Source: an uncultured Clostridia bacterium
Lineage (GTDB): Bacteria; Bacillota; Clostridia; TANB77; CAG-508
Assembly (NCBI GenBank): GCA_947626735.1
Contig: CANQTK010000001.1
Location: 4,405-68,404 of the forward strand
Length of the DNA: 64,000 bases
Direction: 5' to 3'
Under the pieces are notes generated by a model, which did not search any database, was not told the DNA's origin, and worked only from the letters and a program-made list of their open reading frames with translations. The number at the start of each line of letters is the position of its first letter. Position 1 is the first letter of the stretch. Made by a program: the position numbers and the translations under genes. This document shows, one piece after another, positions 1 through 8,840 of the stretch.

Positions 1-789
1 TCATTAGAATTTGAAGATACTGATGCAGCATTAGCTTTTTTATGTATGCTTTTACATGGAGATAGACCTGAAGAAGTATGTGGTACTAAATGGATTGATT
101 TTAATTTTAAAGAAAATGATTATCATATTCAAAATGCTTATAAAAAATTTCCTATTTATAATGAAAATACTATGAAAAGAATTGCTTGGAAAAATGCTGA
201 TGGAACATTAAAAACTCCTGAAAGTGATAGACATTTATCTTTAGATTTATTATTTAAACAATTATTGCTTGAACATAGAATAAGACAAATTTATCAATAT
301 AAAAAAGCAGGAAAAAAGTGGTCTGAAAATGAATATGTTTTCCATAATAGTTCTGGAACTCCTTTTACACCTGATGTTCTTTCTAAAAATTTTGTCAAAT
401 TCATAAAAAGAAATCAACTTCCAAAAATTGTTTTATATGGATTAAGACATAGTTTTGCAACTCATTGTAGAAATTTAGGAGTAAAGCCTGAAGTTTTAGC
501 AAGATTAATGGGACATACAGAATATGAAACTACACAAAAATACTATATTCATATTTCTGCTAAACAGAAAAAAGAAGAATTACAAAGAGTTCAAAATCAA
601 GATATTCAAGGATATCTTAGTGAAAAAAATAAAAATTTAGTACACCTTCAAAGTAATGTTAATTATTATAGTAAAGAAGTTGTAAATTTAGAAGAAGTGC
701 AAAAAGAAGATATGACATATTATTTGCAATTAGATGATGCAACTTTAAGTGTACTAAAAAATGTTATTTCAAAGATTAATAAAAAATAA
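1..789 (+). CDS. tyrosine recombinase/integrase, C-terminal part (5' end lies upstream of the window)
   Basis: The reading frame is open back to nt 1. It contains the catalytic block LYGLRHSFATHCRNLGV...LARLMGHTEYETTQKYYIHIS (R..HxxR...Y). It converges on the 3' end of a tRNA-Lys gene. Confidence 0.8.
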   Translation, partial: SLEFEDTDAALAFLCMLLHGDRPEEVCGTKWIDFNFKENDYHIQNAYKKFPIYNENTMKRIAWKNADGTLKTPESDRHLSLDLLFKQLLLEHRIRQIYQYKKAGKKWSENEYVFHNSSGTPFTPDVLSKNFVKFIKRNQLPKIVLYGLRHSFATHCRNLGVKPEVLARLMGHTEYETTQKYYIHISAKQKKEELQRVQNQDIQGYLSEKNKNLVHLQSNVNYYSKEVVNLEEVQKEDMTYYLQLDDATLSVLKNVISKINKK

Positions 790-836
790 AAATTTATAAA
801 AAAAAGCACTTTTATAAAGTGCTTTTAATCCCTATT

Positions 837-912
837 TGGTGCACCATCTCGGGTTCGAACCGAGGACCTCTTGATTAAGAGTCAATTGCTCTACCAACTG
901 AGCTAATGGTGC
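837..912 (-). tRNA. tRNA-Lys(CUU) with encoded CCA; A27/G43 mismatch in the anticodon stem
   Basis: Reverse complement is GCACCAT TA GCTC AGTTGGTA GAGC A ATTGA CTCTTAA TCAAG AGGTC CTCGG TTCGAAC CCGAG ATGGTGC A CCA. It folds as a cloverleaf with U33, anticodon CUU and A37. Its 3' end abuts the integrase stop codon. Confidence 0.75.
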
Positions 913-921
913 ATTTGCTTT

Positions 922-950
922 GGGGAATATGTGGGGAATTTTTGGGGAAT
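922..950. repeat. three direct GGGGAAT repeats at 11-bp spacing (positions 922, 933, 944)
   Basis: Read directly: GGGGAATatgtGGGGAATttttGGGGAAT. They lie immediately 5' of the mature tRNA-Lys on its coding strand. Confidence 0.6.
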
Positions 951-1047
951 TTTTATATACATATTCCATCTTTTTATTTGCATATGTGAAATTTTATCGA
1001 TTATATCAATAGTTTTATTATTTTTAATTAAATTAAAAACCTTTTCA

Positions 1048-1085
1048 TTAAGAGTCAGCTGCTCTACCAGCTGAGCTAATGGCGC
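1048..1085 (-). pseudogene. orphan 5' half of a tRNA-Lys-like gene (acceptor 5' strand, D arm, anticodon 5' stem and loop CTCTTAA), ending at position 38
   Basis: Reverse complement is GCGCCAT TA GCTC AGCTGGTA GAGC A GCTGA CTCTTAA followed by non-tRNA sequence. It differs at 4 of 38 positions from the intact copy at 837-912. Confidence 0.6.
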
Positions 1086-1100
1086 TTGTAAGCAAGTTTT

Positions 1101-1129
1101 ATTATACGACAAAACTATGCCTTTGTCAA
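1101..1129 (-). promoter_or_regulatory. sigmaA-type promoter (TTGACA, 17 nt, TATAAT) reading into the orphan tRNA half and on toward tRNA-Lys
   Basis: On the minus strand the sequence reads TTGACAaaggcatagttttgtcgTATAAT. The predicted transcription start is about 8 nt before the tRNA-like 5' end. Confidence 0.55.
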
Positions 1130-1178
1130 TATTTTGCCTTATAAATTCTGTTTTTTTGCTTTTCCTCCATTATCTCTT

Positions 1179-2852: not shown

Positions 2853-3007
2853 TTTTTTCTCCCACTCTTTTCTTAATATTATCATATCGCAAATCTATTT
2901 ACAATATTACAAATATTACATTTTTGTAATATTACATTTACTTATAGACAAATTTTGTTTTTTTTTGTATAATAATGCAAAATAAGGAAGAAAGAGGTAA
3001 TTTTACT

Positions 3008-3583
3008 ATGTTAGGCAGTATGCTTTCCAAAATTAGAAAAGAAAAACATATGACAAAAGTAGAACTTGCAAAGCAAACAGGAATTAATATTGGCCATTTA
3101 ACGCATATTGAAAAAAGCGAAAGAAATCCTAGCCATAAAGCTTTAAAAAGCATTACTCATGCCTTAGGCGTTCCTTATCAAATGATCTCTCATTTATATG
3201 ATTTACCCGTTACAGAAGAAGATATAAGATGTAAAATGATTGATCATTTATCTTATCATAAAGTACTAGCCGTTGATTCTTATTCTCAGTTTATAGAATG
3301 TCCTTCTAACGTTCCTTACTCTTCTATTGCCCTAAAAATTCTAGACGATGCAATGGAACCTTATTTTAAGAAAGGTACTTATGGTTTTTTACAATTAAAT
3401 GTTCCTTTAAAAAATAAAGAAATTGGACTATTTGAATATAACGGACAATTATTGATTCGAAGATTTATTATTCGAAAAGATAAATTAGTTTTAAGAGCAG
3501 ATAATAAAACATATGAAGATATTGATTTAACAGAAGATACTTCATTTACGATTATTGGAAAATTACTAAATGGTAATCCATAA
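3008..3583 (+). CDS. XRE-family HTH repressor fused to an S24 (LexA/CI-like) autopeptidase domain
   Basis: N-terminal HTH VELAKQTGINIGHLTHIEKSERNPSHKAL and a C-terminal S24-like fold. The start at MLGSM has an AGAGGT ribosome-binding site. Confidence 0.65.
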   Translation: MLGSMLSKIRKEKHMTKVELAKQTGINIGHLTHIEKSERNPSHKALKSITHALGVPYQMISHLYDLPVTEEDIRCKMIDHLSYHKVLAVDSYSQFIECPSNVPYSSIALKILDDAMEPYFKKGTYGFLQLNVPLKNKEIGLFEYNGQLLIRRFIIRKDKLVLRADNKTYEDIDLTEDTSFTIIGKLLNGNP

Positions 3584-4975: not shown

Positions 4976-5365
4976 TTAATTATTATATTTTTTTCTAGTT
5001 TTTCTTCCTTTATTTAGGTTTGCACCCTTGTATGTACTTGTTAACGAGTGACAGTTGGGGCACAATAAAATTAAATTTTCTTCATCGTTGTTTTTGTAAT
5101 TTCCATCAATATGTTCTATTTCTAAAGGTATTTTATTTGTATATACATTCACCTGTTTCCATCCACATCTTGCACATTTATTTTCATACTTTTCAAATAA
5201 ATAAGTTTTTATATAAGAAGATATTTGATATTCTCCTCTCATTCCATTTATCTGTTTATTTTTCCATTTTTCTATATAATTTTTATATTGAAATTCCTTT
5301 TGACATTTATTTGAGCAATATTTTGAACGATTATTTATTTCTTTTTTACAATTTAGACAATACAT
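4976..5365 (-). CDS. HNH endonuclease with an N-terminal Cys-rich zinc finger
   Basis: CLNCKK...CARCGW...EIEHIDGNYKNNDEENLILLCPNCH. The start at MYCLNCK has a GAAGGTG ribosome-binding site. It lies 80 bp from the 3' end of the intron-containing tRNA-Thr. Confidence 0.75.
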   Translation of the reverse strand: MYCLNCKKEINNRSKYCSNKCQKEFQYKNYIEKWKNKQINGMRGEYQISSYIKTYLFEKYENKCARCGWKQVNVYTNKIPLEIEHIDGNYKNNDEENLILLCPNCHSLTSTYKGANLNKGRKTRKKYNN

Positions 5366-5445
5366 AATAATCACCTTCTCATTTTTAGTAAAATTTTTTA
5401 AAAACAAAAAACCAAGCAAGTTTTATAACAAGCCTGGTTTTAAGT

Positions 5446-5759
5446 ATGGAGCCACTTGCCCGAATCGAACGGGCGACCTACTGATTCATACTACTATAAT
5501 TTTCATTACCACAAATGTGTTTGTAGTCTGGACTTTCTCTTTACCATAGCTTTCCGGCCTTAGGTACACCGTATAAAGTCTCTACACTTAGGAATTTCTT
5601 CCCTAGCTCGGGATTAACCTATATTTTAATACTTAGTCTTCCCCGAATTAGCGGTGTCCACTCTATTCGTTTCCAAATAAAGGTGCAAAATAGTTCAAAA
5701 TAGAAATTTTTTCTATCTATTCCACAAGTCAGTTGCTCTACCATCTGAGCTAAAGTGGC
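5446..5759 (-). tRNA. tRNA-Thr(UGU) gene interrupted between positions 36 and 37 by a group I intron (exons 5759-5724 and 5485-5446)
   Basis: 5' exon is GCCACTT TA GCTC AGATGGTA GAGC A ACTGA CTTGT. 3' exon is AA TCAGT AGGTC GCCCG TTCGATT CGGGC AAGTGGC T CCA. Joined, they give a perfect 76-nt cloverleaf whose body closely matches Bacillus tRNA-Thr(UGU). Confidence 0.75.
5486..5723 (-). ncRNA. group I self-splicing intron (238 nt, IC3-like) in the tRNA-Thr anticodon loop
   Basis: The 5' exon ends in U and the intron ends in G (omega-G). The intron carries the core strings AAUUCGGGGAAGACUAAG, GUGUAGAGACU, ACCUAAGGCCGGAAAGCUAUGG, which match the Azoarcus tRNA-Ile and Anabaena tRNA-Leu intron cores. 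There is no internal ORF. Confidence 0.7.
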
Positions 5760-5888: not shown

Positions 5889-5964
5889 TGGTGAGCCATC
5901 GCGGATTCGAACCGCGGACAACTTGATTAAAAGTCAAGTGCTCTACCACCTGAGCTAATGACCC
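5889..5964 (-). tRNA. tRNA-Lys(UUU)
   Basis: GGGTCAT TA GCTC AGGTGGTA GAGC A CTTGA CTTTTAA TCAAG TTGTC CGCGG TTCGAAT CCGCG ATGGCTC A CCA. Confidence 0.85.
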
Positions 5965-6653: not shown

Positions 6654-8363
6654 ATGACTTCTCTTAAGCGCATTTTATTTTCTTTATTTACTAGCGTTCT
6701 TTTCTTTTTTATTTATTGGTCTATTTTTAAACCCGTCTATATGGCAGAAACGATTATTTTTCCTTATGCCATTCATCCATTTGATATTTGCATCGAGCAA
6801 CCAACTTTATGGAACCTCATCAAATTTTTTTCTATTGTTTCCTGTTTTTTTTCTGATTTTGTTTTATCTTTTTGGATTTTTCTAAAAATTCCCTATCAAA
6901 AACCAAAGCAAAAAGAAAGTAAAAATGCTTTTTATTCTGGTTATCATCTCTCTTTACAAATAGGCTTCAATCATAAAAACGAATTTGTTACTATTCCAGA
7001 AAAAAGTTTATATCAAAATATTTTAATTACAGGAACGATTGGAACAGGAAAAACTTCTTCTGCTATGTATCCTTTTACAAAACAGTTAATGGAATATAAA
7101 AGTAACAACGCAAAAGAAAAATTAGGCATGCTTATTTTAGATGTAAAAGGGAATTATTATTTGCAAGTAAAAGAGTATGCTACACTATACGAAAGAGAAC
7201 AAGATTTAATTATTTTAGATTTAAGTGGCTCTATCAAATATAACCCTCTACATAAACCTAATTTGAAAGCTTCTGTTTTAGCCAATCGATTAAAAACTAT
7301 TTTATTATTATTTTCACCAAATAATAGTGAATCTTTTTGGCTTGACAAGGTAGAACAAATTTTGTGTGAATGTATTAAGCTTTGTAGATTATATAACAAG
7401 GGCTATGTTACTTTTGAGGAACTACATAATTTAGTGGTACTTCCTAATTATTACGAAGAAAAAATTCAAGTTTTAAGAAATTTATTTTTAAAAGGCTCTT
7501 TCTCACAAGAAGATACTTATCATTTACTGTCTTCTTTCAATTTTTTTGAAAAAGAATATTCCATTTTAGATGAAAGAACAAAATCAATTTTAAAATCAGA
7601 AGTAACCAGAATTACTAATTTATTTCTTTCTGATTATCAAGTAAAAAACGTATTTTGTCCAACAGAAAAGGAAATTAATTTTTTTGGCTTTCATGATGTA
7701 TTAGAAAAAGGAAAAATTGTTGTTCTTAATTTAAATATAGCAGAATATAAAAATTTAGCAAAAATGATAGCAGCCTATTTAAAATTAGATTTTCAAACAG
7801 AGGTATTAAATCGTTTAGCTAACACTTCTAATTTAGAAGATCAAAGAAGTATTTGTTTTATTAGTGATGAATACCATGAATATGTTACTTTATCGGATGC
7901 TTCCTTTTTTAGTCAAAGTAGAGAAGCAAAATGTATTAATATTGTGGCAACGCAAAGTTATACTTCTTTATTAAACACTTTAAATAATCCATCCTCTGTT
8001 AAAGTAATTGTACAAAATTTAGTGAATAAACTTTGGTTTCGAACAGATGATATCTTTACTATTGAAGATGCACAAAAACAAATTGGAAAAGAAGAAAAAG
8101 AAAAATTTTCTAAAACTATTTCTGAAAATGCAAAAGAAACAAATTTTAATTATTTATATCATCGTTTTCATTCTAAAAATTCAAATCTTTCTGAATCCTT
8201 TAATACTTATTTCCAAACAGATTATATTTTTGATACTAATTTTTTTACACAAAATTTAGAAACCTTTTCTTGTTTATCTTTTTTATCCGATGGAGATAAA
8301 ATTTTATTACCACAAAAAATAAAATTAGTTCCTTATTTTAAAAAAAATAATTTTAATTATTAA
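6654..8363 (+). CDS. type IV secretion coupling-protein-like ATPase (VirD4/TraG/TraD family) with N-terminal TM helices
   Basis: Two N-terminal TM segments, Walker A ITGTIGTGKTSS, Walker B FISDEYHEY, and a downstream NIVATQS motif. Confidence 0.55.
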   Translation: MTSLKRILFSLFTSVLFFFIYWSIFKPVYMAETIIFPYAIHPFDICIEQPTLWNLIKFFSIVSCFFSDFVLSFWIFLKIPYQKPKQKESKNAFYSGYHLSLQIGFNHKNEFVTIPEKSLYQNILITGTIGTGKTSSAMYPFTKQLMEYKSNNAKEKLGMLILDVKGNYYLQVKEYATLYEREQDLIILDLSGSIKYNPLHKPNLKASVLANRLKTILLLFSPNNSESFWLDKVEQILCECIKLCRLYNKGYVTFEELHNLVVLPNYYEEKIQVLRNLFLKGSFSQEDTYHLLSSFNFFEKEYSILDERTKSILKSEVTRITNLFLSDYQVKNVFCPTEKEINFFGFHDVLEKGKIVVLNLNIAEYKNLAKMIAAYLKLDFQTEVLNRLANTSNLEDQRSICFISDEYHEYVTLSDASFFSQSREAKCINIVATQSYTSLLNTLNNPSSVKVIVQNLVNKLWFRTDDIFTIEDAQKQIGKEEKEKFSKTISENAKETNFNYLYHRFHSKNSNLSESFNTYFQTDYIFDTNFFTQNLETFSCLSFLSDGDKILLPQKIKLVPYFKKNNFNY

Positions 8364-8403
8364 ATTTATTATTTATTTTCATTCAATTTACTAGGAGGTT
8401 TTT

Positions 8404-8733
8404 ATGAAAAAATTTTATTTTATTTTTATTTTATTGCTTCTTATTTATTTTATTTTTATCTTTTCTAATTGTTGTTTTGCTGCTTGGGGAGAGCCAGAGC
8501 TTGTAACAAAATTAAATAAAGCATTTGAATCTATTCAAGAATGGCTCATTAAACTTGCTACTCCTGCTGCTGCAGTAGCAGTGGCAACTGGTGCTTTTAT
8601 GAGAAAATTCAGTTTTGGGGATGAAGAAAAAATTAGAACAGGAAAAAAATTAATAAATGGTAGTTTATTTTCTTATGGATTTATTTTAGCTATTAATTTA
8701 ATATTATCTGCTATTAAATCTTTAATTGGGTAA
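8404..8733 (+). CDS. small secreted two-helix membrane protein, VirB2/TrbC-like topology
   Basis: Signal peptide followed by two hydrophobic segments (LATPAAAVAVATGAF and LFSYGFILAINLIL). The ribosome-binding site is GGAGG. Confidence 0.35.
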   Translation: MKKFYFIFILLLLIYFIFIFSNCCFAAWGEPELVTKLNKAFESIQEWLIKLATPAAAVAVATGAFMRKFSFGDEEKIRTGKKLINGSLFSYGFILAINLILSAIKSLIG

Positions 8734-8840
8734 TTTAATGATTTTATTTTTGTTTTTTATGTTTACTTTTTTGTGTTTGCTACTAAATTCTCTAAAGTAC
8801 TTTAACCCGTTAGATGTTAGCCCACTAGAAAGGAGTTTTT

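Follow-up and report, generated by a model that had tools for sequence, protein, structure and literature searches.

A tRNA-Lys(CUU) gene split in its anticodon loop by a probable integrative element carrying a complete tRNA-Lys(CUU), in an uncultured Clostridia bacterium

Introduction

In tRNA-dependent lysogeny, described by Guerrero-Bustamante and Hatfull (mBio 2024) in actinobacteriophages including Fionnbharth, LeBron and Gaia, the common core measures 8-17 bp, no tRNA is rebuilt at either junction, and a cognate phage tRNA is required for lysogeny (PMC10865867). The tRNA of Fionnbharth lies elsewhere in the genome, where it overlaps gene 37, and its own promoter has been demonstrated. 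The same paper also names a prophage of Lactobacillus (Lj965), and it raises two questions: how common the strategy is beyond actinobacteriophages, and whether the tRNA was gained before or after the long attP core was lost. Judged by title and abstract, the later literature that uses the term consists mostly of phage studies and reviews; two of the papers concern Sinorhizobium prophages, and none reports this arrangement from gut Clostridia. Classical tRNA-targeting islands restore the gene that they enter, according to the Islander paper (PMC4383910). In this study we analysed a stretch of 64,000 nucleotides (nt) from an uncultured Clostridia bacterium (contig CANQTK010000001.1, positions 4,405-68,404; host GC 26.9%), hereafter the window, in which a host tRNA-Lys(CUU) gene is interrupted next to a tyrosine integrase and a second, complete tRNA-Lys(CUU).

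We consider it probable that positions 1-1046 of the window are the right end of an integrative element whose integrase recombined its attachment site, attP, with the anticodon loop of the host tRNA-Lys(CUU), and that this element carries a complete tRNA-Lys(CUU), here called tRNA', instead of a matching 3' half. The loci of the window were compared with contigs of relatives, labelled L001-L109; related genomes were fetched through the VanW-family gene beside the locus or through the integrase.

Results

The host tRNA-Lys(CUU) gene is intact in related strains and cut after its anticodon loop in the window. The VanW-family protein encoded at 1179-2885, to the right of the locus, has G5 and peptidoglycan-binding domains. 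In contigs L002-L004, whose VanW-family ortholog is 98% identical to it, a promoter and a single uninterrupted tRNA-Lys(CUU) follow this gene, and after them come a terminator and a gene that matches Pfam PTPS_related weakly; the promoter in L002 is the same as that of the window. In L007-L010 (ortholog 78% identical) and L109 the VanW-family gene likewise precedes a promoter, one intact tRNA-Lys(CUU) and a terminator, and no integrase was found at the tRNA site in any of these eight contigs. The original prediction, made from the sequence of the window, had pointed to empty sites as a comparison to make, and these eight supply it. None of them shows the combination of promoter, half-tRNA, repeats and complete tRNA that would have spoken for an arrangement independent of an integrase.

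The intact gene, L002:11798-11873, reads GCGCCATTAGCTCAGCTGGTAGAGCAGCTGACTCTTAAT/CAGAAGGTCCGCGGTTCGATCCCGCGATGGCGCACCA. The window is identical to positions 1-39 of this gene, up to the slash, and then diverges into GAAAAGGTTTTTAATT... The orphan 5' half at 1085-1048(-) is GCGCCATTAGCTCAGCTGGTAGAGCAGCTGACTCTTAA, and T39 at 1047 is likewise common to the host tRNA. After CTCTTAAT the window continues as GAAAAGGTTTTTAATTTAATT..., and the T arm, the acceptor strand and CCA are all missing there. A search of the whole window for the host 3' half, with up to 3 mismatches allowed, found none, and neither ARAGORN nor Rfam called a tRNA at the junction. Since the orphan half is identical to the intact L002 gene up to the breakpoint, it represents the host gene itself, severed immediately behind the anticodon loop. 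Two further elements of the original prediction, a 38-nt tRNA-Lys 5' half with no 3' half behind it and a consensus TTGACA-17-TATAAT promoter in front, hold, the promoter matching the consensus at 12/12 positions.

The occupied sites (window, L001, L025 and L058), set against the eight empty ones, give comparative evidence for insertion at an attachment site in the host (attB) that overlaps the tRNA. By this comparison, all DNA to the left of the orphan half is inserted, and both the insertion and its exact breakpoint can be regarded as demonstrated at the level of sequence. A mis-join is ruled out because L001, an independent assembly (Logan run DRR848817), is identical to the window over all 314 shared bases, which span the end of the VanW-family gene, the promoter, the junction and the arm and reach into the complete tRNA. 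We also considered whether the orphan half might be the first exon of an intron-split tRNA, like the tRNA-Thr gene 4.6 kb away. This candidate was rejected: the orphan half lacks a 3' exon to match it, and a separate 5' half is already part of the complete tRNA downstream.

The far junction could be read in a related strain. The host neighbour gene that matches PTPS_related weakly led to contig L024, whose copy of the protein falls in the same 90% cluster; L024 reads ...AAATTATGGATAGCAAATAC/ACTCTTAAT/CAGAAGG...CGCACCA, followed by the host terminator and that neighbour gene. The element side directly before the core is GGATAGCAAATAC, and was absent from every other fetched locus; the host 3' half behind the core is CAGAAGGTCCGCGGTTCGATCCCGCGATGGCGCACCA. 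L023 and L109, approached through the same gene, were uninformative or empty sites. Because the L024 junction has the host 3' half behind the core without a tRNA 5' half, the 3' half is orphaned too, and neither junction appears to rebuild a tRNA. Identity with the host gene stops after T39 at the window junction and starts at A31 at the L024 junction, and in 17 other loci variation on the host side reaches position 30, while that on the element side sets in at position 40. What both junctions and attB share is therefore the 9-bp ACTCTTAAT, made up of A31, the 7-nt anticodon loop and U39, and strand exchange must fall within it. In classical islands of the anticodon-loop class, attP brings along the 3' part of the tRNA, starting at the crossover, and attL is then a functional tRNA; the window shows no such 3' part and no tRNA at its junction.

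The complete tRNA-Lys(CUU) is called by ARAGORN and scores 70.1 bits with Rfam. According to the original prediction it was a hybrid of two tRNA-Lys copies, with an A27/G43 mismatch in the anticodon stem as the sign of this origin. The mismatch is real and is flagged as a non-standard pair. The hybrid origin is contradicted by three observations: the 5' half (GCACCAT...AATTGA) differs from that of the host (GCGCCAT...GCTGA), the acceptor stem forms 7/7 pairs, and the internal tRNA of L025, whose host half is that of the L007-type species, is identical at 76/76 positions. Nor does the mismatch mark a chimera. Pair 27:43 is the sole pair never formed in 7/7 distinct internal tRNA variants, and the intact host tRNA-Lys(CUU) is itself mismatched there (G27/A43), so it is a conserved trait rather than a scar of chimerism.

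An internal tRNA-Lys(CUU) was present in 18/18 Lys-targeting loci, each time with 7/7 acceptor pairs and an encoded CCA, and reached 67.5-72.1 bits in the 13 loci that were scored with Rfam. When the seven distinct variants were laid on the cloverleaf, 95% of cells were paired; sliding the 3' partners by 1-3 columns lowered pairing to 30-42%. Compensatory double changes occurred at nine pairs, a number equalled in 0/500 shuffles. These patterns indicate that the complete tRNA belongs to the element and has been conserved under structural constraint.

The sequence around tRNA' offers candidates for its expression. The scan found no terminator-like site between the host promoter and tRNA' in the window. 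The promoter-like site at 1027-1000 is a possible promoter of tRNA' itself, and it has a counterpart in L020, where TTGAAA-16-TATTTT occupies the corresponding place. On the other side, the hairpin at 802-826 could terminate both converging transcripts, and a homologous hairpin stands at the same place in L013, L020 and L025.

Between the half and the complete tRNA lies a spacer, the P' arm, of 134 nt (the original prediction, which had noticed it, gave 133). Nothing in it can be recognised as a tRNA 3' half; the window, L025 and L019 share a short hairpin there, TATTGAT-ATA-ATCGATA. The three GGGGAAT repeats described by the original prediction are there, at 11-bp intervals. GGGGAAT occurs 6 times on both strands of the whole window, against 4.6 copies expected by chance, and with so few copies in 64 kb, three phased ones inside 29 bp cannot be put down to chance. 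The motif (TCCCCA-type) in two or three direct copies at 11-bp spacing (12 bp in L022) was found in the window, L020, L021, L019, L013, L022 and L011, and the copies start 89-100 nt from the junction in the window, L020, L021 and L019. L019 and L021 abut a tRNA-Arg(UCU) half and have no internal tRNA, and their repeats keep the same distance from the junction as in Lys-targeting elements; L011, L013 and L022, which adjoin tRNA-Thr(UGU), carry the same repeat triplet. Repeat number, phasing and position are thus kept regardless of the target tRNA or of the presence of an internal tRNA. This is the pattern expected of arm-type integrase sites, the putative role that had been proposed for them, and we infer that the integrase binds them through an N-terminal arm-binding domain.

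The integrase converges on the 3' end of the complete tRNA, as had been predicted. It was originally described as 5'-truncated; it is a tyrosine integrase, and the truncation is an effect of the window edge and not biological, as full-length relatives of about 454 residues show. In an alignment with these relatives K71, R149, H150, H172 and Y181/Y182 were invariant, and some 190 N-terminal residues of the window integrase fall outside the window. The family is small, with 49 matches among 5.8 billion proteins, and a scan of GTDB genomes gave one relative, L019. Phage genomes searched with the integrase protein and DNA returned only distant integrases (at most 31% identity) and generic tRNA matches. 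IMG/VR, searched with the integrase and with the junction-side half of the predicted attP (core and P' arm), held no close relative, and searches of plasmids and the PDB gave only distant integrases, with Tn1549 Int and a XerC-like recombinase at E values of about 1e-5.

As the body of the element lies outside the window, its kind was judged from the 5-10 kb beside the integrase gene (int) in L019, L025, L020 and L011. Next to int these relatives encode an HTH_17 (Xis-like) protein, a small sigma-70 region-4 protein and a divergent HTH regulator, and they further carry DUF927 and PrgI genes; no phage structural genes were found within the same 5-10 kb. The order regulator, sigma region-4 protein, Xis, Int is Tn916-like. 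To judge from these relatives, an element resembling integrative and conjugative or integrative and mobilizable elements seems likelier than a prophage.

The same architecture recurs in other hosts. In L020 (integrase 76% identical to the window's) and L025 (75%), a consensus-like promoter is followed by a different host 5' half (GCATCTC... in L020, GCACCAC... in L025) and the break after CTCTTAAT, and then by an arm with three 11-bp repeats, a complete tRNA-Lys(CUU), a terminator and the integrase. This recurrence agrees with the suggestion of the original prediction that an anticodon-loop-targeting integrase sits at the end of an element lying to the left of position 1. A more distant clade (L028-L042 and L058) has integrases 48-53% identical to that of the window. 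Within it, a single element whose arm and internal tRNA do not change has five or more different 5' halves at its junction (L031, L034, L035, L036 and L058), and a constant element side that meets a variable host side at one nucleotide is the signature of site-specific recombination.

Within the 48-53% clade, the element DNA at the junction still looks like the 3' half of a tRNA, T arm and acceptor strand included, and ARAGORN reports the junction hybrids as tRNA-Lys. These hybrids score 43.1-58.9 bits with Rfam, against 67.5-70.6 bits for the internal tRNAs of the same loci; none encodes CCA, and in most of them the acceptor or anticodon stem contains mismatches, which vary with the host half. 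One and the same element forms hybrids of 58.9, 51.2, 49.6 and 43.1 bits in four hosts. No 3' half can be recognised any longer at the junctions of the window, L020, L025 and L042. The decaying 3' half of the distant relatives suggests that the tRNA was acquired before the core eroded.

Several individual loci of the family show other arrangements. At L035:6780-7400 there is a nested insertion, in which the 5' half at the junction is not that of the host gene and is of the element-type tRNA-Lys', so the incoming element used the internal tRNA of a resident element as attB; further upstream, an AT-decayed pseudo-tRNA stands behind the host promoter. The integrases of L019 and L021 are 73-74% identical to that of the window and abut the antisense 3' half of a tRNA-Arg(UCU) gene (L019:10995-11040 and L021:1062-1107). 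Both target and orientation relative to int appear to have been switched here within a close clade, and the arm holds no tRNA. The loci L013:2829-3223 and L022:2890-3176 (integrase 63% identical) follow closely behind a complete tRNA-Thr(UGU), the last gene of a Lys(UUU)-Glu-Thr operon that is the operon found 5 kb from the window locus; the L013 sequence behind tRNA-Thr contains GCTCTTAAT, which resembles the Lys core. At L032:3322-3942 the contig turns, directly upstream of the element tRNA-Lys', to high-GC DNA that holds a tRNA-His, a switch that is probably a chimeric metagenome assembly broken at the tRNA.

Table 1. Mapped features of the tRNA-Lys(CUU) locus and of the neighbouring split tRNA-Thr gene (window positions).
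Feature	Position	Strand	Basis
Integrase, C-terminal part with catalytic domain, 262 residues to the stop codon	1..789	+	Pfam Phage_integrase (PF00589) E 1e-15, PHROG integrase families; frame open at window edge
Intrinsic-terminator-like hairpin, between 3' end of element tRNA and integrase stop codon	802..826	-	Hairpin scan
Complete tRNA-Lys(CUU) of the element (tRNA')	837..912	-	ARAGORN; Rfam 70.1 bits
P' arm, element DNA from crossover core to tRNA', 134 nt	913..1046	-	Divergence from intact host gene after CTCTTAAT
GGGGAAT in three direct copies phased at 11 bp, ATTCCCC when read along the tRNA; candidate arm-type sites for the integrase	922..950	+	Copies at 922, 933, 944
Internal promoter-like site, TTAAAA-16-TATAAT with TG before	1000..1027	-	Consensus match only
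Common core ACTCTTAAT	1047..1055	-	A31, 7-nt anticodon loop and U39
Orphaned 5' half of host tRNA-Lys(CUU), positions 1-38	1048..1085	-	Identity to intact gene of L002
Host tRNA promoter TTGACA-17-TATAAT	1101..1129	-	12/12 consensus match
tRNA-Thr exon 1	5759-5724	-	
tRNA-Thr intron	5723-5487	-	
tRNA-Thr exon 2	5486-5447	-	

A second interrupted tRNA gene lies nearby. The tRNA-Thr(UGU) gene at 5447-5759(-) is split by a 237-nt group I intron after nucleotide 36, in the anticodon loop, and its joined exons are identical at 76/76 positions to an intron-less gene, L002:7699-7774. It was missed by ARAGORN and by the whole-window Rfam scans; in a narrow search the intron matched the Rfam family Intron_gpI with 48.1 bits (gathering score 50; E 2e-11). 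An open reading frame for an HNH endonuclease (4976-5419(-)), absent from L002, lies just downstream of exon 2, outside the intron, which could be paired with a free-standing homing endonuclease.

Two other regions of the window are shared with related strains. A LexA/CI-like repressor (HTH_3 and Peptidase_S24) is encoded at 2975-3583(+), divergent from the VanW-family gene; since all related strains have it, it does not belong to the insertion. A TrwB/TraG-like coupling-protein gene, small open reading frames and DnaB_2 and IstB/DnaC-like genes occupy 6654-12172, beside the tRNA operon. This module is conserved in the integrase-free L002 and L007 and may be an old, fixed conjugative or replicative module.

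Discussion

We propose the following course of events for the window. A tyrosine integrase would have exchanged strands in the anticodon loop between attP and the host tRNA-Lys(CUU), within the 9-bp shared core, and so have split the host gene: the promoter and 5' half would stay at 1129-1048, and the 3' half would come to lie at the far junction beyond the window, where ...ACTCTTAAT-CAGAAGGTCCGCGGTTCGATCCCGCGATGGCGCACCA is expected after the element body to the left of position 1. The excised circle is predicted to carry the attP junction ...ATAC-ACTCTTAAT-GAAAAGGTTTTT... The element would supply no matching 3' half, so neither junction would be a tRNA, and the complete tRNA', situated between the phased ATTCCCC repeats and the integrase terminator and co-oriented with the host promoter, would take over. 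It might be transcribed by read-through from the captured host promoter, from the internal site, or from both. Because neither junction rebuilds a tRNA, the element copy is the likely substitute for the disrupted host gene. In addition, a crossover in the anticodon loop would pair the 5' acceptor strand of the host with the 3' strand of the element, and a portable complete gene would remove the need for the two to be compatible, an idea that comes from the dependence of the hybrid scores on the host half.

Some of our observations weigh against this reading. The far junction is known from a related strain and not from the genome of the window itself, and the L024 contig ends 21 nt past the core, which is too short to identify the element behind it. 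Only the catalytic half of the integrase is in the window, so that the intactness and activity of the element rest on what lies beyond it, and in full-length relatives the N-terminal region gave no match to a Pfam arm-binding domain. We infer expression of the element tRNA from consensus matches only, and a terminator-like hairpin separates tRNA' from the host promoter in L025, which speaks against simple read-through there. Finally, the window has a tRNA-Lys(UUU) at 5889-5964. This tRNA may read AAG codons, so that the host might do without its tRNA-Lys(CUU), and any dependence on the element copy is hypothetical.

The last point leads to an explanation that accepts the same insertion and differs in the role of tRNA', which would be cargo serving codon supply or protecting against tRNA-cleaving defences, while the host tolerates the loss because tRNA-Lys(UUU) reads AAG. 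The presence of that tRNA in the window fits this explanation, an anti-defence role has been raised for phage tRNAs (PMC10865867), and Arg- and Thr-targeting relatives do without a tRNA in the arm. However, the anticodon of the supposed cargo is that of the disrupted target in 18/18 Lys-targeting loci, and the tRNA is absent from relatives that target other tRNAs. Such a one-to-one match between anticodon and target is what complementation predicts, and we regard a cargo role as unlikely. The other explanations read the locus differently. If the locus were a classical island that restores its tRNA, 837-912 would be the attL hybrid of a host 5' half and an element 3' half, and the orphan half and the spacer would be debris of an older, mostly deleted insertion; the empty site should then have a native tRNA-Lys(CUU) with the 5' half GCACCATTAGCTCAGTTGGTAGAGCAATTGA. 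This is the commonest arrangement among tRNA-targeting islands according to the Islander paper (PMC4383910), the A27/G43 mismatch exists, and nested or tandem insertions do occur in the family, as in L035. Yet the host sequence is given by the empty sites, and the complete tRNA has a 5' half other than this; the same tRNA stands unchanged in another host species (L025), and the 27:43 mismatch is universal in element tRNAs. Moreover, the repeats lie between the orphan half and the complete tRNA, and since Arg-targeting relatives without an internal tRNA keep them at the same distance of about 90-100 nt from the junction, the boundary of the element is at the orphan half. A classical island is therefore, in our judgement, very improbable.

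Local partial duplication or gene conversion among tRNA-Lys genes, unrelated to the integrase, is more improbable still. It would draw on the fact that tRNA genes are often substrates of recombination, and a second lysine tRNA is available 5 kb away. Against this, the breakpoint is at the same nucleotide in 18 loci and always beside an integrase of one family, the partner sequence is constant for each element and variable for each host, the spacer does not come from the host, and strains that are 98% related differ in whether the site is occupied.

The recombination of attP with the host anticodon loop, which we prefer, also raises the question of how such elements arose. It is conceivable, although we would put it at somewhat less than an even chance, that this integrase family preserves a stepwise path from tRNA-restoring to tRNA-destroying integration, in which a portable tRNA was acquired before the core decayed and freed the integrase from compatibility with the host acceptor stem. 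If so, the placement of tRNA' downstream of a captured host promoter would make its expression depend on integration, and as the elements may be conjugative or mobilisable, the phenomenon would extend beyond lysogeny. With respect to the questions raised for actinobacteriophages, the locus and its approximately 17 relatives bear on the spread to gut Firmicutes-type bacteria and to elements that are probably not phages, and the graded junction decay favours the order of tRNA first, core erosion later. There are practical consequences as well. Island finders that rely on a restored tRNA and a displaced fragment would probably mis-map or miss such elements, and tRNA annotators will list decayed junction hybrids as genes, as ARAGORN does with its tRNA-Lys calls.

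Compared with known systems, the locus combines features of several. Classical anticodon-loop-targeting integrases and islands were reportedly catalogued by Williams in 2002, and the Islander database (PMC4383910) catalogues them too. Like these islands, the locus has its crossover in the 7-nt loop, int beside the junction, and sites that are polymorphic between occupied and empty; unlike them, the attP of the window clade has no usable 3' half, and the relatives at 48-53% keep a degraded one (43-59 bits as against 67-72, and no CCA). Heterobivalent integrases of the lambda type have tandem arm-type sites, P'1-P'3. The three direct repeats, their helical phasing, the position of the arm next to int and their retention whatever the target tRNA resemble that layout, with binding putative, whereas the N-terminal region of full-length relatives differs in matching no Pfam arm-binding domain.

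The closest likeness is to tRNA-dependent lysogeny. Both have a tyrosine integrase, an attB inside a tRNA gene, a short core (9 bp here, 8-17 bp there) flanked by putative arm-type sites, no functional tRNA at the junctions, an element-encoded tRNA with the anticodon of the destroyed gene, and close relatives in the same integrase family that rebuild the tRNA instead. In contrast to that system, the hosts are low-GC gut Clostridia-like bacteria and not Actinobacteria, the relatives have a Tn916-like module and no phage genes in 5-10 kb, and tRNA', unlike the tRNA of Fionnbharth, lies inside the attP arm, between the repeats and int and co-oriented with the host promoter. On sequence grounds the locus appears to show the three features that define tRNA-dependent lysogeny at that level, and its phage nature is doubtful. 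Overall, it is best seen as a further case of a known strategy, apparently a variant in its host lineage, in its probable element type and in the embedding of the tRNA in the attP arm.

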